Of a DNA stretch of 64,000 nucleotides, positions 7,024 to 50,309 are shown piece after piece. A program made the position numbers and the translations under genes. This DNA is from Raillietiella orientalis (Eukaryota). The notes below the pieces were generated by a model. That model ran no database searches. It saw only the letters and a program-made list of their open reading frames with translations, and was not told where the DNA came from. The stretch's first letter is position 1, and each line of letters starts with the position of its first letter. Location of the stretch: NCBI GenBank assembly GCA_036172245.1, contig JAYWIR010000110.1, positions 1 to 64,000 on the forward strand. The letters run 5' to 3'.

Positions 7024-7124
7024 CAGGAGATCGGTGTCATCAACTTGTAAGTTATCTATTTCTACTTGTATCCTACGAGATTCAACGTGCGGCAGAAGTC
7101 CATTCACATCTGAAAGGCAGCGAT

Positions 7125-7480
7125 GATACATATGTACATATATATAAATATCTATGTACAAATGCATATGAATATGTATAATTATATTTAACATCTTTAA
7201 TTATACATACATGTTCTATATAATGTAAGAAAAAAATATTTAAGTACATAAATTATTCATTATAATAAAATATTAATTTCATACCTGAGATATAATGTAA
7301 TAGTTATATTAGGTTTTCAGAGTAAACAGAATATTCTTTGATTTATAGTTTACTCCAAATGTTTTATATAACAATCATTTATTGTTATTATTATAAAATA
7401 TATTATCCTCAGTTAGTATGATAAAACTAATTCCTAAAATATTTTTAATTTTAAAAAAAATGAATTCAGATTCATTTTTC
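7125..7480. promoter_or_regulatory. Mitochondrial A+T-rich control-region fragment within the NUMT
   Basis: TA-rich repeats; perfect hairpin AAAAATGAAT-TCAG-ATTCATTTTT at 7456-7479, present in all five copies. Confidence 0.65.
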
Positions 7481-7484
7481 ATAA

Positions 7485-7537
7485 AAAGAAATAGTTTAAT
7501 GAATATTTTGTTTACATCAAAAAGGAAAATTTCTTTA
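7485..7537 (+). tRNA. trnV: mt-tRNA-Val(UAC), T-arm-less, NUMT copy
   Basis: Acceptor AAAGAAA/TTTCTTT; anticodon arm TTTTG-TTTACAT-CAAAA; TV-replacement loop. Confidence 0.75.
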
Positions 7538-7559
7538 TTTATACTAATATGACCGAAAT

Positions 7560-8264
7560 TAAATTTAGGATTGAATTATGCTTTACGTTAAAGGCTATTA
7601 GTAATAATTTTTGCATGAGGTTTAGTGTTAATTCGAATAATAAGGTATATATAAATTTTAAAAGCAGATACATAGTATTTAATTTTAATTATAAAAAGGA
7701 TTTGAATTAGTAATGATTTAATGTTTTATGAATATACGTGCGAGCAATAGCGGTTAAACGTGAAAGTTAAATTAACATTAATGTTTTATTAATTTAATAT
7801 GAGAATTTTGGTTCGATAGGAGGTTATTGGTTTTAGATGAGCTATTATTAATGAAGTAGAATTAGGTACTCTAATATAAATAGTGGATATTAAAAAATAG
7901 GGAAGGGCACATATATGAATTGGTTGTAATGAGTAGTATTAGAGGAGTTTGCTTAGTATACGATAATCCGCGAGGAACTTACTTTTTTTAGTGTTTGTAT
8001 ACCGTTGATTCGATTATTTAAGAGTAATTAATTTTCTAAATAGATTGTAATTAAGAGTTCTAATCAAGATGCAGCATAAAAAAGAAGGATTTGTGTACTA
8101 CGTTATCTTAAATTTGGATCTGTTGAATTGAAATAGGATTTAATTGTAAATTTGTTTAAGAAGAGCAAGTTGAATTTAACAGTCATTAAATACAAATCGC
8201 CCGTCGCTCTGATATAATATGAGATAAGTCTTAACATAGTAGATGTACCGGAAGATGTATCTAG
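7560..8264 (+). rRNA. rrnS: Mitochondrial 12S rRNA, NUMT pseudogene (5' end approximate)
   Basis: GTGC(C/G)AGCAATAGCGGTTA, AAATCGCCCGTCGCTC, AAGTC(G)TAACATAGTAGATGTACCGGAAG. Confidence 0.92.
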
Positions 8265-8269
8265 GCAAA

Positions 8270-9440
8270 TGGGTTATTTACTATTAGAAGTAAAGAGTGG
8301 CTTGATGTTGATAATTATTTAAAATTTCGTTAAGTTTGAGTATGAGATTATTAGTAAGAAATTTTATTTTATAATGATAGTGAAATGTACTGAATACGAC
8401 TGTCAATTAATAGTGATCAAGTATTAAAATTAATTACCTTTTGTATCAGAGTGGAATCAATTGAAAATTTATATTTAATGTTTGAATGTTAATGAGTTAA
8501 ATAAAATGATTGTTGTATGTAACAAAATATAGCGGAATTTTATTTAGGGGTGATATGCTGACAAATTAATAGTTCTAATTATTAGTAAGTAAAAATTGGG
8601 GATAAACTTAATTTATTTATAAATATAATAATAGGTATAAATTAGGAGCATTGAAGTAGCTATTACAAAGTTTTAATACTAAGTTAATGTTGATTTTTAA
8701 AGTAGTATGGTAATGTAATGTAATTATTAATAACTTATGTGAAATACTGTTTCAATTGGTAACATCTTAGGTAAGATTAAATTGTGAAGTGGGAATATTA
8801 TAAGGAATTCGGCAAAAATTTGTTTCAACTATTTCTTAAAAACATTTCCTTATGAATAATGTAAGGTATACACTGCCCGGTGTATAATAAACGGCTGCAG
8901 TATATTGACTTTACTAAGGTAGCATACTAGTTAGTTATTTCATTGATAACCTGAATGAAAGATTGTATTAAGCAAGACTGTCTTATTTTGTGTATTTGAA
9001 TTTATTGTTATAGTGAAAAATCTATACTGAATTTAGGGGACGAGAAGACCCTTCAGAACTACTGTCTCTGAATAGATTGAAAATGTGGTAGTGAAATGAG
9101 ATTTTGATGAGATGTTATCTGGGGCGGATAATGAAGAATTTATCTTCATGATTCAAAATTTATATATTAAGTAATATTGATCTTGAAATGAAGAAAAAGT
9201 TACCTAAGGCTTAAAAGCGTAATTTTCATGGAGAGTTCTAATTGATATGAAATTTTGCGACCTGGATGTTGAATTAGGCATCTATAAGACGAAGAAGGTA
9301 TATAGCAGCAGTCTGTTCGACTGAAATTCCTACATGATTTGAATTTAGATCGGCGTAACCCAGATTGGTTTACATCTTTAAATTATAACGTGTTTTGTTA
9401 GTACGAAAGAATTGGAAAGTTAAAATATTTTTTGGGTAAA
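8270..9440 (+). rRNA. rrnL: Mitochondrial 16S rRNA, NUMT pseudogene (ends approximate)
   Basis: TACCTTTTGTATCAG, AAGGAATTCGGCAAA, TAAGGTAGCATA, GACGAGAAGACCCT, TGCGACCT..ATGTTGAATT, GTCTGTTCGACT, TAGTACGAAAG. Confidence 0.93.
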
Positions 9441-9542
9441 GGAAAATTTTAATATTCATGATTTAAAGAATTCTTTGAGTAGTTAGACTTTCTTAGAAAT
9501 AATCATTGGAAATTTCAGATATTTTGAAAGTTGAACGTGTTA

Positions 9543-10400
9543 ATGATCATTCAGAGAATATTTGCGATGTTACTGGTATTGGTTAGTGTGTCTTTCGTGA
9601 CTTTGGTTGAGCCTAAGGTTTTAGGAGTACAATGACTCGAGAGGCCGGGTAAAGTAGGGGTTGGTATTTTTCAGCCTATTGTTGATGGTTAAAACTGTTG
9701 AATAAGGAACATTATGATGTAATGGGTAGAAATAGAGTTGGTTATAAGTTGGGTCCGTTGATTATGGAGTCAGTGATGGTAGGAATGTGAGTGATTTATC
9801 CTAGAAGTCTGGGATTGGTGGGGGAAATCATAGGTTTACTGTTGTTTGTGTGTTATTTAGCAGTTAGGATATGTGGAGAATTAATGGGTGGCTGAGCTAG
9901 TAATAGGAAATATAGGTATGTTGCTGTGGTGCGTTCAGTAGCTCAGATGATTTCTTATGAAGTATGTATGATTGTTGTATTAATGGGTATAGTAGTATAT
10001 TTGGGTGGATATGAATTAGATGTGGAGGTAGAGAGCTGGTTAGTGTTTTGTAGGGCGGGTGGATTAATTGTATGGATTGTTGTATGTTTAGTAGAAGTTA
10101 ATCTTTTACCGTATGATTTTCTGGAAAGTGAATCTGAGTTGGTGTCTGGATATAATGCAAAGTATGGTGGTATATTGTTTGCTTTTTTTATTTTTGTCGG
10201 AATATGGATTTATCGTTTATTGAAGTTTGAATACGAGTAGTTTATTTTTAGGAGGTTGTTATATGGTGAGAATCAAAACTTTATTTGTAATGTATGTGAT
10301 TATTTGATTCCGATGGGTATTGCCTCGTTATTGTTATGATAAGTAGATATATCTGTGTTGGGGTGTTTTATTATATTGTGTGTTTTATTTCTTATTGTCG
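9543..10400 (+). pseudogene. nad1: NADH dehydrogenase subunit 1, NUMT pseudogene
   Basis: FVTLVE.KVLG, GKVG, FQPIVDG, GWASN, RSVAQMISYE, PYDFLESESELVSGYN, LPR..YDK; stops and frameshifts. Confidence 0.96.
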
Positions 10401-10535
10401 GGAGGGAAAGTAGCGATGGGAAGAATGAATGGGTATGATTTGATGGAAAGAATGGGGGGGTATATGATGTCAAAAATTTGTTTATGAGAATAGTAATTTT
10501 GGGTGTTGAAGGATTATGTCTTGATGAAAGGTTAT

Positions 10536-10591
10536 TGCATTTTATTTTTTTTTGATTTACAAAATCAATGTTTCAATTAAACTATGGAGGC
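10536..10591 (-). tRNA. trnT: mt-tRNA-Thr(UGU), T-arm-less, NUMT copy
   Basis: Minus strand TAGTTTAATTGAAACA-TTGAT-TTTGTAA-ATCAA; cross-copy consensus acceptor GCATTCA/TGAATGC. Confidence 0.72.
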
Positions 10592-10594
10592 TGG

Positions 10595-10735
10595 GATTAT
10601 GGATAGAGAATAATGGAGAGAGATAATGATTAAGTGGCTGATGCTTTTTGTTCATGGGTACCTTGGCTGTTGGGTATTTTCGAGTTCTTGATGTGCAAAG
10701 GATGAAGAATGAGGATTTTGACAATGGTAATCCTT
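10595..10735 (-). pseudogene. Possible 3' end of cytochrome b (NUMT), very degenerate
   Basis: FFILCT...KNP...P...Q...YLSLLF (clearest in the 52295-52435 copy) loosely resembles cytb FILLTWIGxNPVExP..GQ..YF; the position fits. Confidence 0.3.
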
Positions 10736-10739
10736 CCCC

Positions 10740-12810
10740 TGCCAGTTTGCTTAGCAGTCGCTGCGCCTCTTGAAGTTGCATGTGTATGACCCGTGATCCA
10801 TGTAGACAGAAGTCTTCGTGGGGATAGAATCACCACCGCGATGTGGTCTTACGTGAATGTACGTTGGCACTGTGCATTGACGATGTATTTTCCCTCCGCG
10901 CAACTTGCTCCTTTTGCTCATGGTCAGAAGCAGTGAGCATTGCCGTATGCATAGCTACAGTTGACGCACGTATGCAGGGAACGCGTTTCATGCTGTCCTA
11001 GAGAATAGCGGTTGGTTATTTGCTTTGGTTCTCGCTTTCAGAAATGATCATAGCTTACGTGTGGTACTCGGAAATGTCAACAAGAATTGCATACCTCCAA
11101 CACACATTCTTCTTTCCACATTTCACTATTTTCAGATTTGAACTTTTCTGTGAACTTGATTGTAGCCTGCATAACCTCGTGTTCTTGAGAAACACACTCG
11201 GATGCATATTCCATCAAGATCAGGCGCTCTTCTGGGATTGGACGTTCCACGGAAAGCAAGAAGCGGATTCAGAATCTGTTCTGCAGCACGCACTTGGCCT
11301 CGTGCCTCTCGGGCGTAAATGGCAACGGTTTAGACTATCTGGAGAAACCAAATTGTGAGTTGCGGCTCTGCACGGTTCACATCTTTCGAGATGCTCATAC
11401 CGTTTGCGACGGCAACTGTCATTCGCATCGTGATGCTTGTGACGGAGGTGTCAAACCTCAGTTAGCTTAGACGCTGAAGATGCAGGTGTTCTCTAGCAAA
11501 AGTGGAACCTCCGGACGGATTTTGCTTCCAGAAGCCCCCAACAATTTGTTGGGTCTAATAGTCGCAAGCGGTCTCTGAGTAAATTGCTGTGCTGCCGTCG
11601 TGGTTTCGAAGTAGATGCGGTGGAAAAGTGGGAACATTCTGTAGAGCCTCCCTATTACGTTGCGATCCGCCATCGCACACACGTGCTGTGACTTTCACGG
11701 CGGGTCCCTGTACGTAACCGAACAAAAGGCACGCTTAAACCAAGTCACTTGAGAGTTTTCACACGCAAGAACATGATGCGAACCAACTCCGCTCTTTCCA
11801 CGTACTTGAGTTGCTCTCCAGATATCCATCAACCTGGTGCCGAGATGAAGAAGTGTGGAAATAAGGCGCTCCACCGATGCAAAACGAAATCTTTTGGGAG
11901 CATAGAGACAACTCGTCAATTAAGGAAGCCACCACCCGCAATGTGTCATGCAAGTTTCTTCGACATTGGATCACGCTGCTCGCAAACTCTCTATTGGACG
12001 TTAAGGGTCTTCCAAAGTGCTTGATGTGCGCCATCCATCCCTCGATATGGCGCTATTTCTGTCTGGTTGAGAGCAGGCTACTAATGGCGATATGATTTTC
12101 ACTCGCGGACTATCTAACCAACAGCCTATTATCATCAACTTGAATACATATGGAGGAACGAATGTGTCAATACTTTACGGTCCTTTTCTTTCTACCAGTA
12201 CTTTCACGATTCTCGATTGCTGCAAAGCAACTTACGTGCCTTCGATTACGAATGAACTCAAAATTCCATGTACCAAGTGCGATAATGGACTTGATGTTTT
12301 GGTTATTAAAGTCGATGGAACTCAAGACACGTGTCCGATGCTCACATGCATCTATTCATATCAACGGATTCTTCCTGCTGAAAAGTGGATGCGTCGATTC
12401 CTTTGTACCCCTGCGTTTAACTGTGCATATTGACGTGTCAACACCCTGGCGGTTTTCTCGCCGTGGATACGGATAATGTGTCGCTTTGCATTCTGACGAA
12501 GAACGCGGTTTCTCATCAGCAACTCATGGAATCAAAGATCGGCGACTTTCCCTCAGCTTTCTCCAAGTGCTGCAATGTTCGCATCATTGGACGGTTGTTG
12601 CGCAATTCATAAGCGGCTTGGTCACAAGCAGCCTCAAGTGTCTGAGTCCTTACTACGGAAGAACATTTCTTCATTGACGCCTAGATGATCCGAGAACCGA
12701 ACTGCTAAGTTTCGGGGAACCCTTTCCCAGGTTTGTAGGTGGGCTGCAGGTGATGAACAGTCTCGATTCATATGAATTCGCAATCAGCAAGATGACGGTT
12801 CTCTCCACTG
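10740..12810 (-). mobile_element. Degenerate piggyBac-type transposase remnant
   Basis: Ordered decayed motifs: SAISRDGW (~MSRxRF), LYAPK..VERLI (~YxP..VDExLI), QFTQRPL..LLGASGSKIRPEVP (~DNxFTSxPL..LVGTxRxNKREIP), C-terminal HTCVNCSYAYGNAHCF* (Cys-rich domain). Confidence 0.6.
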
Positions 12811-12816
12811 TGCGCC

Positions 12817-13910
12817 TGTAACACTAGATTTTCCATTCTCTTTTCAATGTGGTTCCGTTTTTAACTTTCTTTCCTTGTTATTGGGAAGCCAAACTAATCC
12901 TAGAGTTTGCCTAATTTGTTCCTTCTTTTCTTCTCCAGTTTTCTTTGTTTCCGTTCGCGAAATATTCCAAATGAGCCTGTCGCGTGCCGTAAGGCGCACG
13001 TTACTTTTTTGAACACAGTGTTTTGTTACCACGGCTCTCCGTCTAAGGCAAGGGCCGATGTTTTCTAGAAGATAGAGCACCTTAGAAGAAGCTATGGATA
13101 TGAATCCAAAAAGATCTCGGAGTCCGTTCCTCTCTCAGCCATGGTGATCTCACCTCCCACCCTAGTTGTCTCCTTTCTCTTTCTCTCGTAACGCTCCCTC
13201 CCTCCTCAATGGGCATGGCTGTCCTGTCCGTTTTAAATTGTCTGATTAAAACTTCTTCGAAGGCTCATCACCCTTGTGTAAGGTGGTCCTCTCCATTTCA
13301 ACTTCTCCAATGGGAACCCGGAGAAACTCACTTTGGGAGAATTTCTGCTTCGTAGGTAAACCGCAATGGAACCGTTCCTGTTCACTCTTCTGAAGAGAAC
13401 CCCGAAAGCATGCTTCAGAAACTCCGAAGCGGCTCGGCGCTTGCTTGTAGGTACTCGCTCTCGCTTCCTTCCTTGTGCACTCGGTGGAGACGCGACGAAT
13501 CGGTGGGTATATCCTCGGCTGAGCAGGATCCGCTCCATCGAACAACTAGGGAGAGAAACCCGCGAAGGCTCTTGCTCCATGTTCCTTCTCTTGCTCTTTG
13601 TGAAGAGCATGATAGGAAGCGTACCACCGCTGAGGGCGGTCCGCTCCAGCTAACTACTAGGAGAGGAGCCCTTGCGTGCTCTTGCTAGAGGTGCCTTACA
13701 TTGCACTATGAAATGAGGCGATGAATCGGATTTGACCCCCGCTAAGGGGTCTGTTGTCCATTGTACAACCGGATGGCGAACTCCCCACTCCCTGGAATCG
13801 TGAAAGGACTCAAAGGTCGACTGCCATTGTTCCGGGGTTCATGAGAAGTCTCCGGCTTAAACTACCATCGGTGCCCCGACCGAATTTCATCGTACTCCCG
13901 TCGCCATTGC
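12817..13910 (-). mobile_element. Gypsy-like LTR retrotransposon remnant: gag fragment, PPT (13153-13164), 336-bp 3' LTR (13152-12817)
   Basis: Minus strand AGGGTGGGAGG followed by TG...TGTTACA; gag-like QWQSTFESFHDSREW...Q...LAG and KEGSESEY; no pol and no second LTR seen. Confidence 0.45.
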
Positions 13911-14788
13911 AGGAGAAACTCGGAACCCAACGACGCAGTTGCGTCATTTTCTGCCATATCCTTCGATTTGGCGACGCATCGTGCCATGCACAAAAGCCTT
14001 AACCCCAAAGCCTTTGACCCGCCCTAATCTTTATCCTCATCTTTAAGAGCAACGTGCATCGCACTATCTCTCGGAATATCACGGTAAAACAGTCATGAAT
14101 TTGCATTCGCTTGGTCGTAACGCTGGAAAGGAGGGAACTTTGTGAAGGATTCGCTTCAATCATTTCACAATTCCTCCATTCAAAAATAAATTCAAGTGAA
14201 TTCGGCAACAACACTAATGGTAAAATTGCAAAATTCTGGAATAAGAGTCCAATCGATTTGCAGTGTAAATGCGGTCGCATGATGCAAGGAAACGAAACCT
14301 TCCCGTGGCAACTACGTAGCTAAACCCTACGTCGCGGTATTCCAGTAGCCACAAGAGACCCTCATGGAGCGCCTTCTACAACGAGATCCCAAATACGCGT
14401 TCGCGGTTGGAACGCGGAGGCGGGCGCAGAGCTTCGTTTTCGGCGGCCCACAACGGACTGAGATACAGCGTATGCGGCTCCTCTGCTGCTCGCCAGCGCG
14501 CAGGCGCGGTTCGCTGCCCGCGGAACACCGGTCGCGCTAACGTTACGTGCACTCATATCCAGCAGAACATTGGTCTCGCTGCCTTGACGACACACATCAT
14601 GGCATCGTCGTTTATAATTCCATTGGCGGATCACGAATTCGTATTTTCCAGCATTCGAGAAATACTTTCAGGATACGACGGACTGTGTTCTCTCTTGTCT
14701 CGCGTCCTGCACGATTGCTGTTCTTCAAACGTTTCGACTGCACGCAAGGCGGACCATCGGGCTCTCGGATCCACCTCAGCCTCCAGCT

Positions 14789-15110
14789 GTGAGTACCGCT
14801 TCCAAGAGGACCTCAGTCAGCAGTTGGGAGTGCGCGGCCAGTGCACCGCTGGCCGCCCTCGCTCACGTTGAACACCCCTGTCAGCGTTCGGCGGCTGCTC
14901 GCGTCTGCGGATTGTGCCAGCGGGCAGACCGTGCGCGGGCGAACTTGCTTTTGACGCCATTCGAACGCGGAAGAAGCCAAACTTTCCGTGCAATGCTCGC
15001 CACCTGTTCACGGAAAATCGCCACAGCCTAGCTCGTTTGTGTGACAGCTGAACTCCCTCAGCGTACCAAGGAAGTGGATTGATGTTTCTCTCTATGATTG
15101 TTTCTTCCAG
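14789..15110 (+). other. Putative spliceosomal intron upstream of the orphan ORF
   Basis: GTGAGT donor conserved in A (14789) and B (28118, ~55596); pyrimidine-rich CAG acceptor conserved in all four copies. Confidence 0.45.
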
Positions 15111-15112
15111 GT

Positions 15113-15778
15113 ATGCCGAAGAAATCAGCAAATCCTACGCTACGAAAGCGGACTAGGATCTATCTACGCCTTCTACTCCAGAACAGACGCTTTCTCCGCT
15201 GGTATTTCATACACAGCACGAAGCTGCACACCATCGTCGAGGTGCCCGAAGAAGAGCAAAGCGCTGAGCTGATAGAGCAACTTCTTGCGGGCTACGCCGT
15301 TCAGGAGCACCTGCATGAGGAGACACCTGCAGTGCAGATGGAGCGGTACCAGGAGCACCTGCAGGAGCACTTAGGTGCACGGAAGCCGGATCAGCAGCAG
15401 CTGCTGTCTGGCGCAATGGACGCGCTCGCGTGCCGGCCGGAGCACGACCCCAACGAAGCAGAACGGCGTCCACGCGGACGCTGCTCCACGCAGCACGGAT
15501 CCTCTAGCTATAGACATGCCTCTTATTGCATTACAGGTCATCTTTCGCGATGCTGGGATCGCGTACTTGGTATTTTGGATGCGGCCTGCATGCTACCGAG
15601 CGAGAGTGACGATGATGGAGACCCCCAACCGCAAAGCCTATTATGGGGAGCAAAATGGTGTTTTTTTCTAATCCCCTATTTACTGCTAGTGTTCTATCTC
15701 AGGTTAGTACTTCTTCGTCGCGAGCTTCGTTCCCCAGTGGCGTTTGTTCCCTTCTTCAGGTTTCTGATTTGGTGGTAG
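15113..15778 (+). CDS. Orphan protein, A lineage, 221 aa from the ATG: basic N-terminus, LHTIVEVPEEE motif, QEHL repeats
   Basis: ATG 2 nt after the TTTCTTCCAG acceptor; frame open and indel-free versus the B lineage; synonymous excess. Confidence 0.6.
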   Translation: MPKKSANPTLRKRTRIYLRLLLQNRRFLRWYFIHSTKLHTIVEVPEEEQSAELIEQLLAGYAVQEHLHEETPAVQMERYQEHLQEHLGARKPDQQQLLSGAMDALACRPEHDPNEAERRPRGRCSTQHGSSSYRHASYCITGHLSRCWDRVLGILDAACMLPSESDDDGDPQPQSLLWGAKWCFFLIPYLLLVFYLRLVLLRRELRSPVAFVPFFRFLIWW

Positions 15779-15889
15779 CGGAACAAGCAATGGAATCGTC
15801 CTGTTGACACGAGTGCCGTCCGCTCATCTTCTTCGTCCTCTGTTTGATGATCCGCTATTTAGTTTCGTGTGCAAATCCAAATTCTGGAG

Positions 15890-17806
15890 TTCAGTGAGTT
15901 TACGGATTTCAAAGTTGCCGGGCAATCTTAAGTGAAATTCGTATGTTTATTAATAAGCAAATAAACTACAGGAATAACCAAGCCTCAATATTTATTAACA
16001 AGCTCATATCAGGAACATATTCAGGAATTTGCTTGGACTTATGCTTTGAGATTGCTAACAGATGAAGTTGTATTTGTGGTTTTTGTTCGTTGGGTACATC
16101 ACTAGACACATAGCAGAAGTAAGATAATATACACATAGGATTCAACAATGTTGAACACATGCATTCCTCGTGCGCTTGCGTTTCCGAAAGCACCGTCATT
16201 CACCCAATACTTGAAAAATTTTTTCTACATTCAATTCAGACGTAAGAATTCGGAAGGCCAAATGGGAAGGGTTTTAGAAACTCGTTCCACGACTTTCCCT
16301 TTTTTCTCCTTATTGCCACAGATTCTCCACAATACTAGCAAGTTGAAACAGTGTATAGATTCTCTGGCTTCATAGACATTCTGTTTACATGTTCCCATAT
16401 ATGGCTTTTTATAAACACCAATACAATATAATGGAAGTAATTTGCACGTATCTTCGATGTTTCTAAACTTCCTATACCTGTTATACATTTGCTCATCATA
16501 CTAAGTTGGTTGAGAAAATGTAAATTCTTTCTTACGGGCACATGGATTGCTAATGAGCTCGAGTGGAATTGCGTCGACGCTGCCTATTGTGGTGTCGTCA
16601 TGGAAAGGTTTTCAAAGGTCGTAAGTAACACTGCTGCAAGGAAGATGATCCCTCAGAAAACAAGCTCGTTTCTAGAGCAGAGCGCATCCTACCACAACTT
16701 TAGTACATCCCGATTGCAGATCCTCCGCAGTTCAGGAAAGCCATTTCTGTGCGATCGAAAAGAGGTATCTAGCCTCCAGTTTTGCCACGACGCAAAGTGA
16801 ATTGCAGAATCGAGATTTTGGGAGCCAAATATAAATTTTGGATTTGGTTGCCTTAGGCATTGCGATCCGTGCAGTCCCACGCTACAGAAATCTGCTGACT
16901 GCGTGGCCAGATTGGTGAAAGTGGTGATGCTCTTCCTTGCCCTGTTACCCACTGGGATGTCACTCAATTTGGTGAGCATACGAGGTAGGAAACATTCGTT
17001 TATTTCTATCCCGATGTGGCCGCTTCTTCTCCTCTTCCCTAGCTTTTTTCTCTGCCCCATGGCAACGACGTGGTGCTCTTAAGGATCGTTGGCTTGCAAG
17101 TAGCGAAAGTGCATTTTCCGCGCTTGCTTGCTACCTACGTGCTGCGGTCGCGGACTGCTTCCGTAATAAAATCGAGAATGGCGCAGAGACAAGTCCTTTT
17201 GCGGAAAGTAGTGAGAGAGCAAATCTTTTTTATCCATGCTAGTTGCAGGAAATGAGCTACGGATACCAAGATTCTTATTTTCACAACATTCTTTTATTGC
17301 GTAACTTGAAAATGATGCAACCTATTACTTGCAGGAATATTATGCATACACCATATGTTTTATCATTTGCCTTTTGAAAGCTGTTCGTTGCTGGGACGTG
17401 TTGTATATAGTTGAGCATCATTTGAAGCAAAATCATAGGAAGATGTCTGCCTGTGTTTCTGGATTCACAATATTGGTGTGGGGTTTCGTAGGAGACCAAA
17501 ACTTTTCTTACATACGCCCATCAAACATGTGGCGAATGTTAAGAAACTTCTTTGGTTGATGATAGTTTTCTAAAGTAGATGAGCGGATTAAACCTTTAGT
17601 TTAAAATGGTAAAGCTGTACAGCTTCCAACGCGGCCTAGCACGATCATGAATTTCATTTAAGCAGGAGTCACGTTTTCGGTTTGTGCGTATGCACATTTA
17701 TCAGCTCAATCTTTCGAGGAACTCGTGGCCGCTTACTTTCGACAGGAACACCTCCATTTTCCTGGTTCGCTTGGGGCAAGCGGATCAAATCCTTCCTCTC
17801 TTAACT
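15890..17806 (+). pseudogene. Degenerate Maverick pPolB (unit 2)
   Basis: Same motifs, plus VYGFQSC at ~15898 (~VYEFxGC of the pPolB nuclease-like insert). Confidence 0.72.
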
Positions 17807-18021
17807 CTCAACATTGAAGGTTGTTGCTTTCATAACGGCGTCGATAGGAAACTAGACAAACAGCCTGAGCGATGCTTGAATCGAAGACAAGCTACTGCTG
17901 AGCGGCGGCGGGAATCCTTGAGGTGTTCTTTCTGAACTGAAACTGAAGTGGCACACTTCTTAAGAAACTAATGTTCGGTGGAAATCCTTATCTTAATTTC
18001 CATTCTTGACATGTTTATTTT

Positions 18022-18910
18022 GTGCGTATACGAATGGAAATACCAGAGATTGAGACATTCATCACACTTGACGGAGCATCCAAAAATTTTAAACTTTCGA
18101 TTCGTTTCTACAAAAGCATGGAAAAGTCCATTCTCGAGACAGGTGTATGTATTCTTAATGCGTCGCTTGTTCTGTGTTCCTTGAAAGATACTGAAACCAA
18201 TAGGTTCACACATCTCGAAGCATGGGAATGTCCGTGCGCAATGGAAACGGTGCACAGCAATAGTTTCCGGTACAGGGAAGAGCTCATTTCCGTTTCAGTT
18301 TTCCCCGTGGGATACGCACAGCTCTCAGGAATAAAAGGATTCACAGTCTCTGGAAACGATGTCGTGTAGAAGTCGATTTGTCTGCACCTGCTGCTCGCGC
18401 CTCGAAGAGCATGCTAGTTGCGAGGAGAATTGCGGTCGGCTGGCAACATCGGACCTGTGAGGAAGTGCGGCCACGCGGCCCGAGAACTGCTGCAGTGCAA
18501 AGGTGATGGAGGTGGGAGCTTGCCCGCTCAGAGTTCCCTCGTGCGCCATGCAGAGTACACAAAGGTCTCCGTTTGCAGAAATTTCGCATTTCGCCACGGC
18601 ACGCATTTTGCCCGTACCAATCTGAAGAGCCTTCCGGAAGCGGCTGGAGGGTGGGCTGCAAAGCGCAATCTTCGCTGTTTATTTTCAGTTCGGAGAGCTT
18701 ACTGTACTTAAGCGGAAAATGCTTTATTTCCGCTAAACGAATGTCGTTTATGATTGTCATCCGAGCGAAGAATCTTTGAAGTGTCACCTTCGTTACAGAG
18801 CGGTTCTCATCAAAACGAATCCCGTTTATCCCAAAGTGGCAACAAGTACCCGCAGAGGCCCCCAACGCTCTCCACGAATATCCCATGGTAGTCTGCCATC
18901 TAGAAAGCAC
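18022..18910 (+). pseudogene. Degenerate Maverick minor capsid (unit 2, long form)
   Basis: Same motifs, plus SSLFIFS...SG...R...SVTF resembling the PX C-terminal half. Confidence 0.5.
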
Positions 18911-18927
18911 GTCTTCTGAACGGTTGA

Positions 18928-19143
18928 ATGCTTTCTTTAATGCTCTCACCGAATCAAATCATTTCACTCCATCCGTTGTTATCATGGATACTTTCTAATC
19001 TCGGTTCCATTTTCTCTAAAATCTTTGTTCTTCTTTTTCGAGCACTTCAGGAACGATCGTCACCGTCGGACAGAGCGCTTTCCGTCGTGATAAAGCAAAC
19101 GGGCAACAGGTTGCCAGCACGTTCGCATCCGAAAAAGGACTAG
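18928..19143 (+). pseudogene. Remnant of small Maverick ORF between minor and major capsid genes (GxGxxFxxLFR-type, core-like protein)
   Basis: NLGSIFSKIFVLLFR...KQTG; syntenic position; paralogs at ~2720, 32129, 47641, 59604. Confidence 0.4.
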
Positions 19144-19244
19144 ATAGAAGAGCACACTGTCGTGCTCCATGTGCTCAAGGCCGATCGCGTCCTTCGTGAA
19201 CCAGCGTCTATGAGCTACTGTCTCACATATCCCTTATCATTACG

Positions 19245-20445
19245 TTGAATGTTATGGAATGAAGTGGATCTCGTGAAAAAGAGTTGACCTCATGGTTGTT
19301 GCTGTTTCGCTGTGATCGTCCGGTCCCTGCGAGCTTTCAAATGTTCACTTGCATGCACCATCGCCGTTGAACAACGTTCAAATCGATCCTCTCTCCTGAA
19401 GGTTGGATTAAATCGAGAGGAATCTCTACTGCTCAAGCACTCTCTATCTGACTTTTTTCCTAGATAGTGAAAGCATTTATGAAGACAACATTCCAAATGT
19501 CTGCACAACGCCAGAGCCGAATCATATACGTTCATCGATATGCATATGTCGATGTATGGGGAAGGTTTTCGTCGACCTACCGTTTGCTGTCACGGAGCAC
19601 TGACACGCTGCATTCAGGCAGCCTATTTATCATTTATTACGAATTTCTTCCCACTTTCGTGCCACCAAGACTGTACTTGATTTTCCGCTGTCGGAGTATC
19701 TGCGAGCAAAGCCGCGGATTGAGGTCACTCTTCATGGTCAGATATTCCTTGCCATATGCTGTCCCGAGTACGTTTAGATAATGTAGCTGCGGTACATTTC
19801 TCCAGAGCAATGCCTCTGCCGGAGTTTCTGTCTTCCATGGTATTCCAACATCCTTCCGAAAAACGCACGTGTTCGTTCCCAGGAAAGGTGTAACCTCGTG
19901 CACTTACGGTCAATTCACAAAGCTCCACGTTTCGTTTACCATACTGAAGATCAACTCTTGCACGCTCTGCAAAGAAGATATCTTGCTAATTTTGACTTCC
20001 AGCAATTGAATTTCGGACTTTCACGCAAGCATTTTAAGGTTCTGAAGGGAATTGTGGACTCAAAGGAAATCGGGGAATTCCAATTTCAACCTGGAGAAGG
20101 TGAGCAGTCAAAAGTTTGTGATCTTTATGGTCTAGTAGGCGTTATGCGACGAGACGAGGAATCCTTCCGCAATCATAATAATCACACACAAAGGAAACCT
20201 TCATTACACCCTGAAACTCTGCGTGGTTCAGGGATTTAAAACCACGATACTCCTCACGATTCGAGTACTATTGCTGATTGAGGAGAAGAACAATTTTTTT
20301 GCTATTTCTGAAGAGAACGCTGCCAAATCTTCGTTTCGTTTTCTACCCAGGAGATCGGTGTCATCAACTTGGGAGTTATCTATTTCTACTTGTATCCTAC
20401 GAGATTCAACGTGCGGCAGAAGTCCATTCACATCTGGAAGGCAGC
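19245..20445 (+). pseudogene. Degenerate Maverick major capsid protein (double jelly-roll, PY), 3'-truncated by the NUMT
   Basis: RVDL (~ELDLF), STLYL, SRSTDTL (~SxSxNTY), QRRYLANFDFQQLNFGLSRKHFKVL (~QxRYLxNGVDLxIKLxRSxxxFxL), HNNHTQRKPSLHP (~HxxxLxKxPAxYP), SSFRF (~NPFNF), in the expected order. Confidence 0.62.
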
Positions 20446-20808
20446 GATGATACATATGTACATATATATAAATATATATGTACAAATGCAAATGAATATG
20501 TATAATTATATTTAACATCTTTCATTATACATACATGTTCCATGTACTGTGAGATAAAAATATTTAAGTACATTAATTATTCATTATAATAAAATATTAA
20601 TTTTATACCTGACATATAATGTAATAGTTATATTAAATTTTCAGAGTACAAAGAACATTCTTTGATTTATAATTAACTCCAAATGTTTTATATAACAATC
20701 ATTTATTGTTATTATTATAAAATATATTATCCTCAGTTAGTATGAAAAAACTAATTCCCAAAATATTTTTAATTTTAAAAAAAATGAATTCAGATTCATT
20801 TTTCATAA

Positions 20809-20861
20809 AAAGAAATAGTTTAATGAATATTTTCTTTACATCAAAAAGGAAAATTTCTTTA
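20809..20861 (+). tRNA. trnV: mt-tRNA-Val, NUMT copy with anticodon-stem mismatch
   Basis: Paralog of 7485-7537. Confidence 0.68.
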
Positions 20862-20884
20862 TTTATACTAATATGACAGAAATT

Positions 20885-21592
20885 AAATTTGGGATTGAAT
20901 TATGCTTTACGTTAAAGGCTATTAGTAATAATTTTTGCATGAGGTTTAGTGTTAATTGGAATAATAAGGTATGTATAAATTTTAAAAGCAGATACATAGT
21001 ATTTAATTTTAATTCTAAAAGGGATTTGAATTAGTAATGATTTAATGTTTTATGAATATGCGTGCCAGCAATAGCGGTTAAACGTGAAAGTTAAATTAAC
21101 ATTAATGTTTTATTAATTTAATATGAGAACTTTTGGTTCGATAGGAGGTTATTGGTTTTTAATAAGCTATTATAAATAAAATAGAATTAGATACTCTAAT
21201 ATAAATGCTGGATATTAAAAAATAAAGGGAAGGGGACTTATATGAATTGGTGGTAATGAGAATTATTAGAGGAGTTTGCTTAGTAAACGGTAATCCGCGA
21301 GGAACTTCCTTTTTCTAGTGTTTGTATATCGTTGATTCGTTTATTTAAGAGTAATTAATTTTCTAAATAGATTGTAATTAAGAGTGCTAATCAAGATGCA
21401 GTATAAAAAAGAATGATTTGTGTACTACGTTATCTTAAATTTGGATGTGTTGAATTGAAATAGGATTTAATTGTAAATTTGTTTAAGAAGAGCAAGTTGA
21501 ATTTAACAATCATTAAATTCAAATCGCCCGTCGCTCTGATATAATATTAGATAAGTCGTAACATAGTAGATGTACCGGAAGGTGTATCTAGG
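20885..21592 (+). rRNA. rrnS: Mitochondrial 12S rRNA, NUMT pseudogene
   Basis: GTGCCAGCAATAGCGG, ATTAGATAC, AAGTCGTAACATAG. Confidence 0.92.
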
Positions 21593-21599
21593 CAAATGG

Positions 21600-22770
21600 G
21601 TAATTTACTAGTAGAAGTAACGATTGGCTTGAAGTTGATAATTATTAAAAATTTGGTTAAGTTTGAGTATGAGATTATTAGTAAGAAATTTTATTTTATA
21701 ATGATAGTGAAAAGTACTGAATACGACAGTCAATTAATAGTGATAAAGTATTAAAATTAATTACCTTTTGTATCAGAGTGGAATCAATTGAAAATTTATA
21801 TTTCATGTTTGAATGTTAATGAGTTAAATAAAATGATTGTTGTATGTAAGAAAATATAGCGGAATTTTATTTAGGGGTGATATGCTGACAAATTAATAGT
21901 TCTAATTATTAGTAAGTAAAAATTGGGGATAAACTTGATTTATTTATAAATATAATAATAGGTATAAATTAGGAGCATTGAAGTAGCTATTACAAAGTTT
22001 TAATACTAAGTTAATGTTGATTTTAAAAGTATTATGGTAATCTAATGTAATTAATAATAATTTATGTGAAATAATGCTTCAATTACTAAGATCTTAGGTA
22101 AGATTAGATTGTGAAGTGAGAATATTATAAGGAATTAGGCAAAAATTTGTTTCAACTATTTCTTAAAAACATTTCCTTATGAGTAATATAAGGTATAATC
22201 TGCCCGGTATATAATAAACAGCTGCAGTGTATTGACTGTACTAAGGTAGCATACTAGTTAGTTATTTCATTGATAACCTGAATGAAAGATTGTATTAAGC
22301 AAGACTGTCTTATTTTGTGTATTTGAATTTAATGTTATAGTGAAAAATCTATAGTGAATTTAGGGGACGAGAAGACCCTTCAGATCTAGTGTCTTTGAAT
22401 AGATTGAAAATGTGGTAGTGAAATGAGATTTTGATGAGATGTTATCTGGGGCGGATAATGAAGAATTTATCTTCATGATTCAAAATTTATATATTAAGTA
22501 ATATTGATCTTGAAATGAAGAAAAAGTTACCTAAGGGATAAAAACGTAATTTTCATGGAAAGTTCTAATTGATATGAAATTTTGCGACCTCGATGTTGAA
22601 TTAGGCATCTATAAGACGAAGAAGGTTTATAGCAACAGTCTGTTCGACTGAAAATCCTACATGATTTGAATTTAGATCGGCGTAAGCCAGATTGGTTTAC
22701 ATCTTTAAATTATAACTTGTTTTGTTAGTACGAAAGAATTGGAAAGTTAAAATATTTTTTGGGTAAAGGA
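21600..22770 (+). rRNA. rrnL: Mitochondrial 16S rRNA, NUMT pseudogene
   Basis: Same motifs; TGCGACCTCGATGTTG intact. Confidence 0.93.
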
Positions 22771-22869
22771 AAATTTTAATATCCATGATTTAAAGAATTC
22801 TTTGAGTAGTTAGACTTTCTTAGAATTAATTATTGGAAATTTCAGATATTTTGAAAGTTGAACGTGTTA

Positions 22870-23730
22870 ATGATCATTCAGAGAATATTTGCGATGTTAC
22901 TGGTATTGGTTAGTGTGTCTTTCGTGACTTTGGTTGAGCGTAAGGTTTTAAGAGTACAATGACTCGAGAGGCCGGGTAAAGTAGGGGTTGGTATTTTTCA
23001 GCCTATTGTCGATGGTTCAAAATTGTTGAATAAGGAACATTATGATGTAATGGGTAGAAATAGAGTTGGTGATAAGTTGGGTTCGTTGATTATGGTGTCA
23101 GAGATGGTAGGAATGTGAGTGATTTATCCTAGAAGTTGGGGATTGGTGGGGGAAATCATAGGTTTACTGTTGTTTGTGTGTTATTTAACAGATAGGATAT
23201 GTGGAGAATTAATGGGTGGCTGAGCTAGTAATAGGAAATATAGGTATGTTGGTGTGGTGCGTTCAGTAGCTCAGATGATTTCTTATGAAGTATGTATGAT
23301 TGTTGTATTAATGGGTATAGTAGTATATTTGGGTGGATATGAATTAGATGTGGAGGTAGAGAGCTGGTTAGTGTTTTGTAGGGCGGGTGGATTAATTGTA
23401 TGGATTGTTGAATGTTTAGTAGAAGTTAATCTTTTACCGTATGATTTTCTGGAAAGTGAATCTGAGTTGGTGTCTGGATATAATGCGGAGTATGGTGGTA
23501 TATTGTTTGCTTTTTTTATTTTTGTCGGAATATGGATTTATCGTTTATTGAAGGTTGAATACGAGTAGTTTATTTTTAGGAGGTTGTTATATGGTGAGAA
23601 TCAAAACTTTATTTGTAATGTATGTGATTATTTGATTACGATGGGTATTGCCTCGTTATCGTTATGATAAGTAGATATATCTGTGTTGGGGTGTTTTATT
23701 ATATTGTGTGTTTTATTTTTTATTGTCGGG
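22870..23730 (+). pseudogene. nad1: nad1 NUMT pseudogene
   Basis: RSVAQMISYE, ESELVSGYNAEYGG, LPRYRYDK*. Confidence 0.96.
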
Positions 23731-23863
23731 AGGGAAAGTAGCGATGGGAAGAATGAATGGGTATGATTTGATGGAAAGAATGGGGGGGTATGTGATGTCA
23801 AAAATTAGTTTATGAGAATAGTAATTTTGGGTGTTAAAGGATTATGTCTTGATGAAAGGTTAT

Positions 23864-23919
23864 TGCATTTCATTTTTTTTTGATTTACAAAATCAGTGTT
23901 TCAATTAAACTATGAAGGC
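23864..23919 (-). tRNA. trnT: mt-tRNA-Thr, NUMT copy
   Basis: Paralog of 10536-10591. Confidence 0.7.
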
Positions 23920-24064
23920 TGGGATTATAGATAGAGAATAATGGAAAGAGATAATGATTAAGTGGCTGATGCTCTTTGTTCATGGGTACCTTGGCTGTTG
24001 GGTATTTTCGAGTTCTTCATGTGCAAAGGATGAAGAATGAGGGTTTTGACAATGGTAATCCTTC

Positions 24065-26140
24065 CCCTGCCAGTTTGCTTACCAGTCGCTGCGCCTCTTA
24101 AAGTTGCATGTGTATGACCCGTGATCCATGTAGACAGAAGTCTTCGTGGGGATACAATGACCACCCCGATGTGGTCTTACGTGAATGTACGTTGGCACTG
24201 TGCCTTGACGATGTATTTTCCCTCCGCGCAACTTGCTCCTTTTGCTCATGGTCAGAAGCAGTGAGCATTGCCGTATGCATAGCTACAGTTGACGCACGTA
24301 TGCAGGGAACGCGTTTCATGCTGTCCTAGAGAATAGCGGTTGGTTATTTGCCTTGGTTCTCGCTTTCAGAAATGATCATAGCTTACGTGTGGTACTCGAG
24401 AATGTCAAAAAGAATTGCATACCTCCAACACACATTCTTCGTTCCACATTTGACTATTTTCAGATTTGAACTTTTCTGTGCACTTGATTGTAGCCTGCAT
24501 AACCTCGTGTTCTTGAGAAACACACTCGGATGCATATTCCATCGAGATCAGGCGCTCTTCTGGGATTGGACGTTTCACGGAAAGCAAGCAGCGGATTCAG
24601 AATCTGTTCTGCAGCACGCACTTGGTCTCGTGCCTCTCGGGCGTAAATGGCAACGCTTTAGACTATCTGGAGAAACCAAATTGTGAGTTGCGGCTCTGCA
24701 CGGTTCACTTGTTTCGAGATGCTCATACCGTTTGCGACGGCAACTGTCATTCGCATCGTGATGCTTGTGACGGAGGTGTCAAACCTCAGTTAGCTTAGAC
24801 GCTGAAGATGCAGGTGTCCTCTAGCAAAAGTGGAACCTCCGGACGGATTTTGCTTCCAGAAGCCCCCAACAATTTGTTGGGTCTAATAGTCGCAAGCGGT
24901 CTCTGAGTAAATTGGTGTGCTGCCATCGTCGTTTCGAAGTAGATGATGTGAAAAAGTGGGAACATTCTGTAGAGCCTCCCTATTACGTTGCGATCCGCCA
25001 TCGCACACACGTGCTGTTACTTTCACGGCGGGACCCTGTACGTAACCGAACAAAAGGCACTCTTAAACCAAGTCACTTGAGAGTTTTCACACGCAAGAAC
25101 ATGATGCGAACCAACTCCGCTCTTTCCACGTACTTGAGTTGCTGTCCAGATATCCATCAACCTGGTGCCGAGATGAAGAAGTGTGGAAATAAGGCGCTCC
25201 ACCGATGCAAAACGCAATCTTTTGGGAGCATAGATACAACCCGGCAATTAAGGAAGCCACCACCCGCAATGTCTCATGCAAGTTTCTTCGACATTGGAAC
25301 ACGCCGCTCGCAAACTCTCTATTGGACGTTAAGGGTCTTCCAAAGTGCTTGATGTGCGCCATCCATCCCTCGATATGGCGCTATTTCTGTCTGGCTGATA
25401 GCAGGCTACTAATGGCGATATGATTTTCACTCGCGGACTATCTAACCAACAGCCTATTATCATCAACTTGAATACATATGGAGGAACGAATGTCTCAATA
25501 CTTTAAGGTACTTTTCTTTCTACCAGTACTTTCACGGTTCTCGATTGCTGCAAAGCAACTTACGTGCCTTCGATTACGAATGAACTCAAAATTCCATGTA
25601 CCAAGTGCCATAATGGACTTGATCTTTTGGTTATCAAAGTCGATGGAACTCAAGACACGTGTCCGATGCTCACATGCATCTATTCATATCAACGGATTCT
25701 TCCTGCTGAAAAGTGGATGCGTCGATTCCTTTGTACCCCTGCGTTTAACTGTGCATATTGACGTGTCAACACCCTGGCGGTTTTCTCGCTGTGGATACGG
25801 ATAATGTGTCGCTTTGCATTCTGACGAAAAACGCGTTCTCTCATCAGCAACTCATGGAATCAAAGATCGGCGATTTTCCCTCAGCTTTCTCCAAGTGCTG
25901 CAATGTTCGCATCATCGGACGGTTGTTGCGCAATTCATAAGCGGCTTGGTCACAAGCAGCCTCAAGTGTCTGAGTCCTTACTACGGAAGAACATTTCTTC
26001 ATTGACGCCTAGATGATCCGAGAACTGAACTGCTAAGTTTCGACGAACCCTATCCCAGGTTTGTAGGCGGGCTGCAGGTGATGAACAGTCTCGATTCATA
26101 TGAATTCGCAATCAGCAAAATGACGGTTCTCTCCACTGTG
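24065..26140 (-). mobile_element. Degenerate piggyBac-type remnant (unit 2)
   Basis: Paralog of 10740-12810. Confidence 0.6.
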
Positions 26141-26144
26141 CGCC

Positions 26145-27240
26145 TGTAACACTAGATATTCCGTTCTCTTTTCAATGTGGTTCCGTTTTTAACTTTCTTT
26201 CCTTGTTATTGGAAAGCCACACTAATCCTAGAGTTTGCCTAATTTGTTCGTTCTTTTCTTCTCCAGTTTTCTTTGTTACCGTTCGTGAAATGTGCCAAAT
26301 GAGCCTGTCGCGTGCCGTAAGGCGCACGTTACTTTTTTGAAAACAGTGTTTTGTTACCACGGCTCTCCGTCTAAGGCAAGGGCCGATGATTTCTAGAAGA
26401 TAGAGCACCTTAGAAGGAGCTATGGAGATGAATTCAAAAAGATCTCAAAGTCCGTTCCTCTCTCACCCATGGTGATCTCACCTCCCACCCTAGTTGTCTC
26501 CCTTCTCTTTCTCTCGTAACGCTCCCTCCCTCCCCAATGGGCATGGCTGTCCTCTCCTTTTTAAATTCTCTGCTTTAAACTTCTTCAAAGGCTCATCACC
26601 CTTGCGTGGGGTGGTCCTCTGCATCTCAACTTCTCCATTGGGAACCCGGAGAAAGTCACTTTGGGAGAATTTCTGCTTCGGAGGGAAACCGCAATGGAAC
26701 CGTTCCTGTTCAATCTTCTGAAGAGAACCCCGGAAGCATGCTTCAGAAACTCGGAAGCGGCTCGGCGCTTGCTTGTAGGTACTCGCTCTCGCTTCCTTCC
26801 TTGTGCACTCGGTGGAGAAGCGACGAATCGGTGGGTATTTCCTCGGCTGAGCAGGATCCGCTCCATCGAACAACTAGGGAGAGAAACCCGCGAAGGCTCT
26901 TGCTCCATGTTCCTTCTCTTGCTCTTTGTGAAGAGCATGATTTGAAGCGTACCACCGCTGAGGGCGGTCCGCTCCAGCTAACAACTAGGAGAGGAGCTCT
27001 TGCGTGCTCTTGCTAGAGGTGCCTTACATTGCACTATGAAATAAGGCGATGAATCGGATTTGACCCCCGCTAAGAGGTCTGTTGTCCATTGTACAACCGG
27101 ATGGCGAACTCCCCACTCCCTGGAATCGTGAAAGGACTCAAAGTTCGACTGCCATTGTTCCAGGCTTCATGAGAAGTCTCCAGGTTAAACTACCATCGTT
27201 GCCCCGACCGAATTTCATCGTACTCCCATCGCCATTGCAG
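26145..27240 (-). mobile_element. Gypsy-like remnant (unit 2)
   Basis: Paralog; putative LTR 26145-26480. Confidence 0.45.
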
Positions 27241-28442
27241 GAGAAACTCGGAACCCAACGACGCAGTTGCGTCATTTTATGCCATATCCTTCGATTTGGC
27301 GACGCATCGTGCCATGCACAAAAGCCTTAACCCCAAAGCCTTTGACCCGCCCTAATCTTTATCCTCATCTTTAAGAGCAACGTGCATCGCACTATCTCTC
27401 GGAATATCACGGTAAAACAGTCATGAATTTGCATTCGCTTGGTCGTAACGCTGGAAAGGAGGGAACTTTGTGAAGGATTCGCTTCCAATCATTTCACAAT
27501 GCCTCCATTCAAAAATAAATTCAAGTGAATTCGGGAACAACACTAATGGTAAAATTGCAAAATTCTGGAATAAGAGTGCAATCGATTCGCATTGTAAATG
27601 CGGTCCCATGCTGCGACGCAACGAAAACTTCTCGTGGCAACTGCGTAGGTATACCGTACGTCGCGGCATTACAGCAGCCACAAGAGACCCTCATGGAGCG
27701 CCTTCTACAACGAGATCCCACATACGCGTTCGCGGTCGCAACGTGGAGGCGGGCGCAGTGCTTCGTTCTCGGCGGCCCACAACTGACTGAGATACAGCGT
27801 AAGCGGCTCGTCAGCTGCTCGCTAGCGCGCAGGAGCGGTTCGCTGCCCGCGGAACGCCGGTCGCGCCAACGTTACATGCACTCATGTCCAGCAGAACATT
27901 GGTCTCGCTGCCGTGACGACACACATCATGGCATCGTGGTCCATCATTCCATTGGTGGATCACGGATTCGAAATTTACAGCATTCGAGAAATGCTTTCAG
28001 TCGACGACGGACTGCGTTCTCTCTTGTCTCGCGTACTGTAAGTTGATTGTTCTTGGAACGTTTTGACTGCACGCAAGACGGACCATCAGGCTCTAATATC
28101 GACTCAAGCCTCCAGCAGTGAGTACCAGCGTGCAAGAGAACATCGGCCAGCAGTAGGGAGTGCGCGGCCAGAGGACCGCTGGCCGTCCTTGCTCACGGTG
28201 AACACCCCTGTGAGCGTTCGGCTGCGGCTCACGGCTGCGGATTGTGCCAGAGGGCAGGCCGCGCGCGGGCGAACGCGCTTTCGCGGCCAATCGACCGCGG
28301 AAGAAGCCAAACTTTCCGTGCAACGCTCGCGACCTGTGCACGGAAAATCGCCACAACCTTGCCCACCTGTGTGACAGCTGAACGCAATCCGTGTCGCAAA
28401 GAAGTGGATTCATGTATGTCTTTATTATTTTTTCTTCCAGGC

Positions 28443-37354: not shown

Positions 37355-37376
37355 TTTATACTAATATGACCGAAAT

Positions 37377-38082: not shown

Positions 38083-38089
38083 CAAATGG

Positions 38090-50302: not shown

Positions 50303-50309
50303 CAAATGG

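Follow-up and report, generated by a model that had tools for sequence, protein, structure and literature searches.

A probable taxon-restricted protein-coding gene within an old tandem duplication that carries a mitochondrial insert in Raillietiella orientalis

Introduction

Is an open reading frame (ORF) that recurs four times in a tandem array a gene in use, the relic of one, a piece of a mobile element or an accident of base composition? The question is raised by positions 15113 to 15778, forward strand, of a 64,000-nucleotide stretch of the Raillietiella orientalis genome (assembly GCA_036172245.1, contig JAYWIR010000110.1, positions 1 to 64,000), the whole of which is called the window here. 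An earlier note, made from the same sequence, had taken this ORF for a lineage-specific orphan gene and for the selected cargo of an amplified unit. Our analysis points to a real taxon-restricted ('orphan') protein-coding gene, or one that was real until very recently, carried in an old tandem duplication. We hold this to be probable, and the whole coding sequence would lie within one exon. Observed directly are copies with lesions, a ratio of replacement to synonymous substitution rates (dN/dS, omega) that falls below 1 in a frame-specific manner, and one collinear relative outside the array.

Four copies of the ORF

A blastn search of 15113-15778 against the window returned four copies on the forward strand, at the places that the earlier note had given for them (Table 1). 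Two are of type A (A1, the copy searched with, and A2) and two of type B (B1 and B2). Identity to A1 is 95.5% for A2, 85.8% for B1 and 86.2% for B2, while B1 and B2 agree at 647 of 665 positions (97.3%). Translation and a four-way alignment revealed a 1-bp deletion relative to type A near codon 182, common to B1 and B2. The remaining lesions of the B copies are private to one copy each: codon 178 is TAG in B1 and TGG in B2 and A, and codon 167 is TGA in B2 and CGA in B1.

Through codon 165, the frame is open in three of the four copies (A1, B1 and B2), and one copy (A2) is dead. All three B-copy lesions lie 3' of codon 165, outside the region shared with the relative described below, whereas both stops of A2 lie well inside it. 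The sequence past about codon 165 appears dispensable. The earlier note had described the ORF as open and free of indels in both lineages, with one copy in four disrupted. Because of the deletion shared by B1 and B2, their private stops and the stops of A2, this statement holds for codons 1-165 and fails for the full length, over which A1 alone is intact.

Purifying selection in the coding frame

Purifying selection on the ORF is concentrated in codons 1-70, and the remainder evolves nearly freely. A codon model (IQ-TREE, GY+F3X4, fixed tree) was fitted to 163 codons of the four copies and compared with omega = 1 by a likelihood-ratio test (LRT). In frame, omega was 0.443 (2dlnL 11.4, p = 7.4e-4), whereas the other sense frames of the same DNA gave 1.07 (+1, p = 0.80) and 1.45 (+2, p = 0.18). 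Leaving out A2 lowered the in-frame value to 0.374 (p = 1.5e-4), and codons 1-70 taken by themselves gave 0.309 (p = 7e-4). Pairwise estimates between A and B by the Nei-Gojobori method (NG86) over codons 1-165 ranged from 0.37 to 0.48 in frame (0.373 for A1-B1 and 0.397 for A1-B2) and from 0.80 to 1.37 in the other two sense frames. As flank controls, we took 276 overlapping windows of 165 codons from the diverged flanks, in six frames and for two pairs. Their NG86 omega had a median of 0.85 and a minimum of 0.45, and was at or below 0.40 in none of the 276. With frame-shifted and flanking controls alongside, dN/dS is thus low, and not near 1, in this one frame only, as the earlier note had expected of a gene. 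The hand counts on which that expectation was built are exact for A1 against B1: 12 synonymous and 13 replacement codons within codons 1-70, and four and zero, respectively, within codons 40-65. For A1 against B2, the latter count becomes 3:3. Base composition also varies along the codon, GC content being 0.66/0.44/0.62 at the three positions of the ORF and flat in four other long ORFs.

Two other accounts of this pattern were considered and set aside. The antisense frame has an NG86 omega of 0.39-0.49, and it was rejected as the coding frame because its third positions are common with those of the sense frame and it contains 9-10 stops. CpG hypermutability does not account for the substitutions: CpG ratios (observed/expected per 500-nt window) are 0.57-2.07 over the whole unit and 0.91-1.26 near the ORF, and transversions outnumber transitions among the A1-A2 differences in the ORF.

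Substitutions were placed on branches by parsimony and then permuted among sites of the same base. The A1 branch carries six synonymous and four replacement changes and no stop, compared with a null mean of 2.0 synonymous changes (p = 0.0056). The A2 branch, with two synonymous changes, six replacements and two stops, fits neutrality, and the B1 (2:3) and B2 (3:2) branches have too few changes. These branches bear on the possibility that the ORF is a coding relic, which was functional while A and B diverged and is now decaying in all copies, A1 simply not having been hit yet. Such a history would fit the nonsense or frameshift lesions found in three of the four copies, the abundance of long ORFs in the window and the within-lineage changes over codons 1-165, which are too few to show current constraint (synonymous to replacement 8:12 for A1-A2 and 6:8 for B1-B2). 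Nor is the escape of A1 from stops surprising, since only about 0.64 stop-creating changes are expected on its branch. It fits less well with the synonymous excess on that same stop-free branch, or with the position of the private B stops and of the shared frameshift, all of them 3' of codon 165; the chance that two random private stops would both fall in the last 25 of about 190 codons is P ~0.02, a post hoc figure. We regard a coding relic as unlikely.

A single distant relative

An exhaustive phmmer search of 1.84 billion representative proteins returned a single match, referred to here as P0001 (229 aa, E 1.6e-4). The two proteins begin at the same residue, and 26 of 54 residues (48%) are identical at the N-terminus, a match with shuffle z-scores of 24 and 19. 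By tblastn, residues 6-219 of P0001 align to B2 and residues 12-219 to B1 (E ~4e-9), collinearly and nearly end to end. For B1 against P0001, the shuffle z-score is 3.3 in the middle part and 4.6 for the C-terminal motif S..I..L.R.CW..V.RFL. P0001 ends about 10 residues past this motif, which corresponds to about codon 165 of the ORF.

The two proteins share the order of their parts: a basic N-terminal helix, an acidic Q/E-rich linker, a GA(M/C)DAL element and the C-terminal motif. They differ in that overall identity is only about 29-37%, and in that P0001 has a linker about twice as long, lacks a hydrophobic tail and has a pI of 4.9 (8.2 in the array protein). Given that one distant relative exists, the family appears to be old and fast-evolving rather than a de novo ORF. 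The description of the gene as lineage-specific therefore holds in the sense that it is lineage-restricted and belongs to no known family, and does not hold in the sense of being strictly species-unique.

No domain was recognised, as the earlier note had stated. A1 matched no Pfam family at E values up to 10 and no NCBIfam, B1 and P0001 gave only sub-threshold hits in Pfam, a PDB profile search yielded chance-level immunoglobulin hits only (best E 0.26), and the ESM Atlas contained no usable match for A1 or P0001. At near lengths, a word-indexed protein search found no relative of A1, and an alignment-based search returned P0001 alone, which was itself part of the query alignment. Longer proteins gave no relative either, which is weak evidence. 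Two scans of metagenome contigs found no locus, although they did not recover P0001's own contig, and no relative was present in the prokaryote genome contigs searched.

Predicted features of the protein and its gene

The encoded protein is small, and probably helical or disordered. Residues 1-40 carry a net charge of +8 to +11 in A1, B1 and P0001 (+11 in A1), and residues 41-100, which are Q-rich in all three, one of -9 to -13. The predicted N-terminal helix would be strongly basic and bear the conserved motif RKxT...RRFLRxY...KLxTIxEVPE; after it would come a Q-rich, acidic linker whose length varies, and then a short putative C-terminal helix (S..I..L.R.CW..V..FL). At a guess, and with low confidence, the basic helix might dock onto nucleic acid or an acidic partner.

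In the tail of A1, Kyte-Doolittle hydropathy (19 residues) peaks at residue 183 with a value of 2.39, marking a transmembrane-like segment that B1 and P0001 lack. Within the same A-lineage tail, a donor-like GTTAGT, which reads GTGAGT in the B copies, and an acceptor-like TTCTTCAG occur in 15703-15759 of the forward strand. These sites delimit 57 nt, a multiple of three, possibly a small intron.

Around the ORF, candidate signals for a transcript are listed in Table 1. Of these, the donor-like GTGAGT at 14789 could end a 5' non-coding exon. We infer both the boundaries of the gene and a continued function of the B copies.

Weighing the coding interpretation

Several observations weigh against a functional gene. 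A full-length open frame is kept in only one of the four copies (A1). In the codon model, neither codons 71-165 (omega 0.653, p = 0.22) nor the A-frame tail, codons 183-221 (omega 0.63, p = 0.38), can be told apart from neutral sequence. On the internal branch, the permutation is borderline, with 17 synonymous and 29 replacement changes, no stops and 11.5-12.2 synonymous changes under the null (p = 0.045-0.07). The fixed differences between A and B are distributed 16/12/18 over the codon positions, with no significant periodicity (p = 0.54). Furthermore, the changes assigned to the A1 branch might be of older origin and have been transferred by gene conversion, and constraint acting on A1 today is therefore unproven. 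The family's one outside member is an unnamed singleton from a 1248-bp JGI/IMG metagenome contig, and the C-terminal match of A1 to it is not significant (z 1.5, p = 0.098). An AlphaFold2 model from a four-row alignment predicts helices, with a mean pLDDT of 43.4 and a pTM of 0.22 that make it unusable. Finally, the window contains 31 stop-to-stop ORFs of at least 150 aa, among them one of 227 aa at 6015-6695 and one of 210 aa at 576-1205.

Openness by itself is, in fact, weak evidence for coding. At the indel rate of the flanks (10 events in 2335 nt), the probability of finding none in the 495 nt of codons 1-165 is about 0.12. On branches other than A2, about 2.6 stop-creating substitutions are expected and none is observed. 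A-B identity per 200 nt is 79-91% in the ORF and 72-97% in the flanks (13817-18189), so that the ORF is not clearly better conserved.

A further proposal is that the ORF arose by chance in GC-rich non-coding DNA and that its omega signal is accidental. The 31 long ORFs and the flat codon-position counts of the fixed differences speak for it, and multiple testing applies because the ORF was chosen after a scan of the whole window. It has to contend, however, with an LRT that is significant in one frame, with 276 flank controls none of which is as low, with a collinear homologue outside the array whose E value of 1.6e-4 is library-wide, and with a codon-position composition that is coding-like. 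A chance ORF is already disfavoured, and we consider it very improbable.

No mobile-element domain or terminal repeat detected around the ORF

The constraint might also stem from the life of an element rather than from that of the host, if the ORF were an accessory gene of a transposon, a Maverick/Polinton or an endogenous virus. Accessory genes of mobile elements are typically orphans that evolve fast, have a single exon and encode charged termini. Its only relative comes from a metagenome, and a sub-threshold zinc knuckle lies about 7 kb downstream of B1, within the B1 unit.

The surroundings of the ORF speak against such an origin. A Pfam scan of 272 stop-free ORFs (126 + 81 + 65) of at least 48-70 aa, which relics in shorter pieces would escape, detected no polymerase B, integrase, capsid, ATPase, reverse transcriptase or transposase. 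Apart from sub-threshold noise, only the mitochondrial ND1 fragment was recognised. No long terminal repeat (LTR), terminal inverted repeat (TIR), other inverted repeat or long direct repeat was found in 11000-20400. The Maverick relic and transposable elements that the earlier note had seen carried along in the unit were thus not recovered in these ORFs or this interval. The copies stand in register within a tandem array instead of being dispersed, and 2.9 million viral contigs contained no relative. A match to a known accessory ORF of a transposable element, which would have spoken against a host gene, was looked for and none was found. Taken with these results, an element origin seems to us distinctly improbable.

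Two candidate traces of elements were noted in the window. A scan for motifs of the polymerase-B type picked up a general motif twice, in neither case within a polymerase context, and the candidate was rejected. The zinc knuckle mentioned above is a weak zf-CCHC match at 35968-36483 on the reverse strand (E 0.027, below the Pfam cut-off), the sole retroelement-type hint in the scanned ORFs.

Structure and history of the array

Self-alignment resolved the window into direct tandem units of 12-16.5 kb, with partial units at both ends and no palindromes seen (Table 1). Between about 9000 and 19500, types A and B diverge by 8-22% in each 500-nt window, mostly-gap windows being set aside. Divergence extends over most of the B2 unit, and the B1 unit is a mosaic: it is A-like up to about 27800 (94-98% identical to the unit at 7024-20347) and B-like around the gene. 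In A1 coordinates, the alignment of 20348-31678 with 7024-18339 is 94-98% identical up to about 14500, 78-86% identical from 14500 to 17500 and 94.6% identical after 17524. Such a mosaic suggests that the unit types have undergone gene conversion or unequal exchange with one another. Since positions 1-2573 are 97% identical to the sequence downstream of A1, a further A-type unit probably begins before the window. A search for tandem repeats within 1-32000 found none.

Table 1 Features of the ORF, its copies and the tandem units (window coordinates)
Feature	Position	Strand	Remarks
Copy A1	15113..15778	+	sole fully open copy: 222 codons, ATG at 15113 to TAG at 15776-15778, 221 aa
Copy A2	43804..44469	+	pseudogene; in-frame TGA at codon 30, TAG at codon 61
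Copy B1	28443..29107	+	177 codons open (28443-28973), then private TAG at codon 178
Copy B2	55917..56581	+	166 codons open (55917-56414), then private TGA at codon 167
Constrained N-terminal part	15113..15322 (codons 1-70)	+	omega 0.31, p 7e-4
Core common to outside relative P0001	codons 1-165 of A1	+	
A-lineage tail with hydrophobic segment	codons 183-221 of A1	+	
Donor-like GTGAGT (candidate)	14789..14794	+	present in 3 of 4 copies; GTTAGT in A2
Acceptor-like pyrimidine tract and AG (candidate)	15102..15110	+	2 nt 5' of the ATG; identical in 4 of 4 copies
AATAAA, putative poly(A) signal	15960..15965	+	~180 nt past the A1 stop; identical in 4 of 4 copies
Unit carrying A1, type A	7024..20347	+	self-alignment
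Unit carrying B1, mosaic	20348..36840	+	self-alignment
Unit carrying A2, type A	36841..49060	+	95-99% identical to unit 7024-20347
Unit carrying B2, type B	49061..61023	+	self-alignment
Mitochondrial insert	7024-~10500, 20348-~23800, from 36841, from 49061, from 61024		
Insert genes, examples	trnV 7485-7537; rrnL fragment 22537-22693; nad1 22810-23565		

Each unit contains a mitochondrial insert with trnV, part of rrnL and nad1, in that order, which bears out the earlier note's claim of a nuclear mitochondrial insertion (NUMT) in the amplified unit. As every unit carries it, the insert predates the split of A and B. Its GC content is 22-38% per 500-nt window, its GC skew is about +0.43 to +0.53, and its sense strand is G+T-rich. 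Under the invertebrate mitochondrial code, nad1 is open for 252 codons, with AGA/AGG (AGR, read as Ser) occurring 11 times and TGA four times, and a frameshift follows at about 23420-23570. The use of AGR for Ser and the richness of the sense strand in G+T indicate a non-vertebrate animal. In addition, ARAGORN predicted a tRNA-Thr at about 23845-23919, on the complementary strand.

A history that would account for these features starts from a unit of about 12 kb in which the mitochondrial insert and the gene were already present. This unit would have been duplicated in tandem long ago, giving rise to types A and B with their present divergence, and a later round of duplication would have affected both types (2-5% divergence). 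The units may then have been shuffled by gene conversion or unequal exchange. The outcome would be the present state, in which A1 is intact, B1 and B2 are truncated in the tail only and A2 is dead.

Was the gene itself selected for copy number?

The region around the ORF shows excess divergence between the two type A copies. In the ORF, 30 of 666 positions (4.5%) distinguish A1 from A2, compared with 66 of 3707 (1.8%) in the flanks (Fisher p = 6.8e-5). The divergent patch spans about 15030-15760 against 43720-44450 and is centred on the ORF. Both branches contribute to it, at interleaved positions, and no comparable ORF excess exists between B1 and B2. Of the 30 differences in the ORF, 10 are transitions and 20 transversions. 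Synonymous sites are affected too (dS ~0.07, omega 0.45-0.56), and for this reason the patch looks mutational or recombinational, not adaptive: a mutational effect confined to the region, or exchange with copies not seen here, accounts for it better than adaptive evolution of the protein would.

The earlier note went further than a gene carried in an array and saw in the ORF a selected ampliconic cargo. The gain in copy number would itself have been favoured, through dosage or through germline or sex-chromosome conflict, and the NUMT and the rest of the unit would have hitch-hiked. This proposal builds on the coding interpretation and does not exclude it. In its favour, no segment of the module except the ORF shows significant coding constraint (omega 0.68-0.71 in 16441-16797 and 14320-14868), at least four copies lie within 64 kb, with a fifth unit probably starting before the window, both diverged forms, A and B, have persisted alongside each other, and the raised A1-A2 divergence roughly spans the ORF. 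Against it, A2 is dead, B1 and B2 are truncated, and the raised divergence includes the synonymous sites.

Identity between copies argues in the same direction. Ampliconic multicopy gene families on sex chromosomes have been described (PMC13616518, PMC6028258, PMC10618873), and in the accessible text of one of these sources such families are defined by at least 97% identity between copies (PMC13616518). At that threshold, only B1-B2 (97.3%) qualifies; A1-A2 reaches 95.5% and A-B 85.8-86.2%. By this definition, as far as the accessible text gives it, the array is not a typical ampliconic family (PMC13616518). Selection for copy number is thus, in our judgement, an unlikely addition to the coding reading.

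It is possible that the gene drives the array and that it is sex-linked or expressed in the germline. A fuller version of this idea would have a fast-evolving, dosage-amplified germline gene in two antagonistic or complementary forms, A with a possibly membrane-anchoring hydrophobic tail and B without a tail, and would read the A1-A2 patch as ongoing exchange with unseen copies in an intragenomic conflict. We offer it as a speculation with little probability.

Comparison with known systems

Slx/Sly and Stellate/Su(Ste) are familiar examples of ampliconic genes. The array resembles the sex-chromosome families, to the extent that these are covered by the sources available to us, in that a small, lineage-restricted gene is repeated in large duplicated units with non-genic passengers. 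It differs from them, with the same proviso, in that its copies are 86-97% identical rather than at least 97%, in that one of four is dead and two are truncated, and in that its units are direct tandem repeats without palindromes.

A tandemly amplified NUMT array is known in the domestic cat. Here too, a fragment with trnV, rrnL and nad1 occurs once per nuclear tandem unit. The difference is that the NUMT occupies only about one quarter of its 12-16.5 kb unit, which holds a constrained nuclear ORF as well, and it is a passenger rather than the whole repeat. A literature search on NUMTs and tandem arrays returned nothing relevant.

With orphan genes, the ORF shares the lack of any Pfam, PDB or Atlas match, short length, a single coding exon, low predicted order and strong constraint confined to a short, motif-bearing region. 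It differs in having one distant relative, so that it is not strictly species-unique. If expressed, it would represent a new uncharacterised protein family in which a basic N-terminal motif is sharply conserved and whose members so far are the array proteins and a single protein from a metagenome. Expression would, moreover, make it a clear-cut example of a taxon-restricted gene surviving in a decaying, NUMT-carrying tandem duplication. The intact, tail-truncated and dead copies form a natural series from which one may learn which part of an orphan protein is needed. For the biology of sex chromosomes or of meiotic drive, the array has no bearing as yet.

Other segments of the unit

Two further segments were considered as coding and not retained. 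The ORF at 16441-16797 on the forward strand (119 codons) is open in three of four copies, B1 having a 1-bp deletion. Its NG86 omega of 0.46-0.52 is among the lowest of the control windows, but the codon model gives 0.68 (p = 0.22) and it has no Pfam match, and it is probably non-coding. For the segment 14320-14868, omega is 0.71 and not significant (p = 0.18).

Finally, an extra GC-rich segment of about 4.4 kb (up to 55% GC) is present at 2286-6689 and 31691-36099, the two being 96.7% identical. Its long ORFs have R/G/S/A-rich, random-looking translations without a Pfam match. The segment is complete in these two units only, and versions of about 1.6-1.9 kb end the A1, A2 and B2 units.

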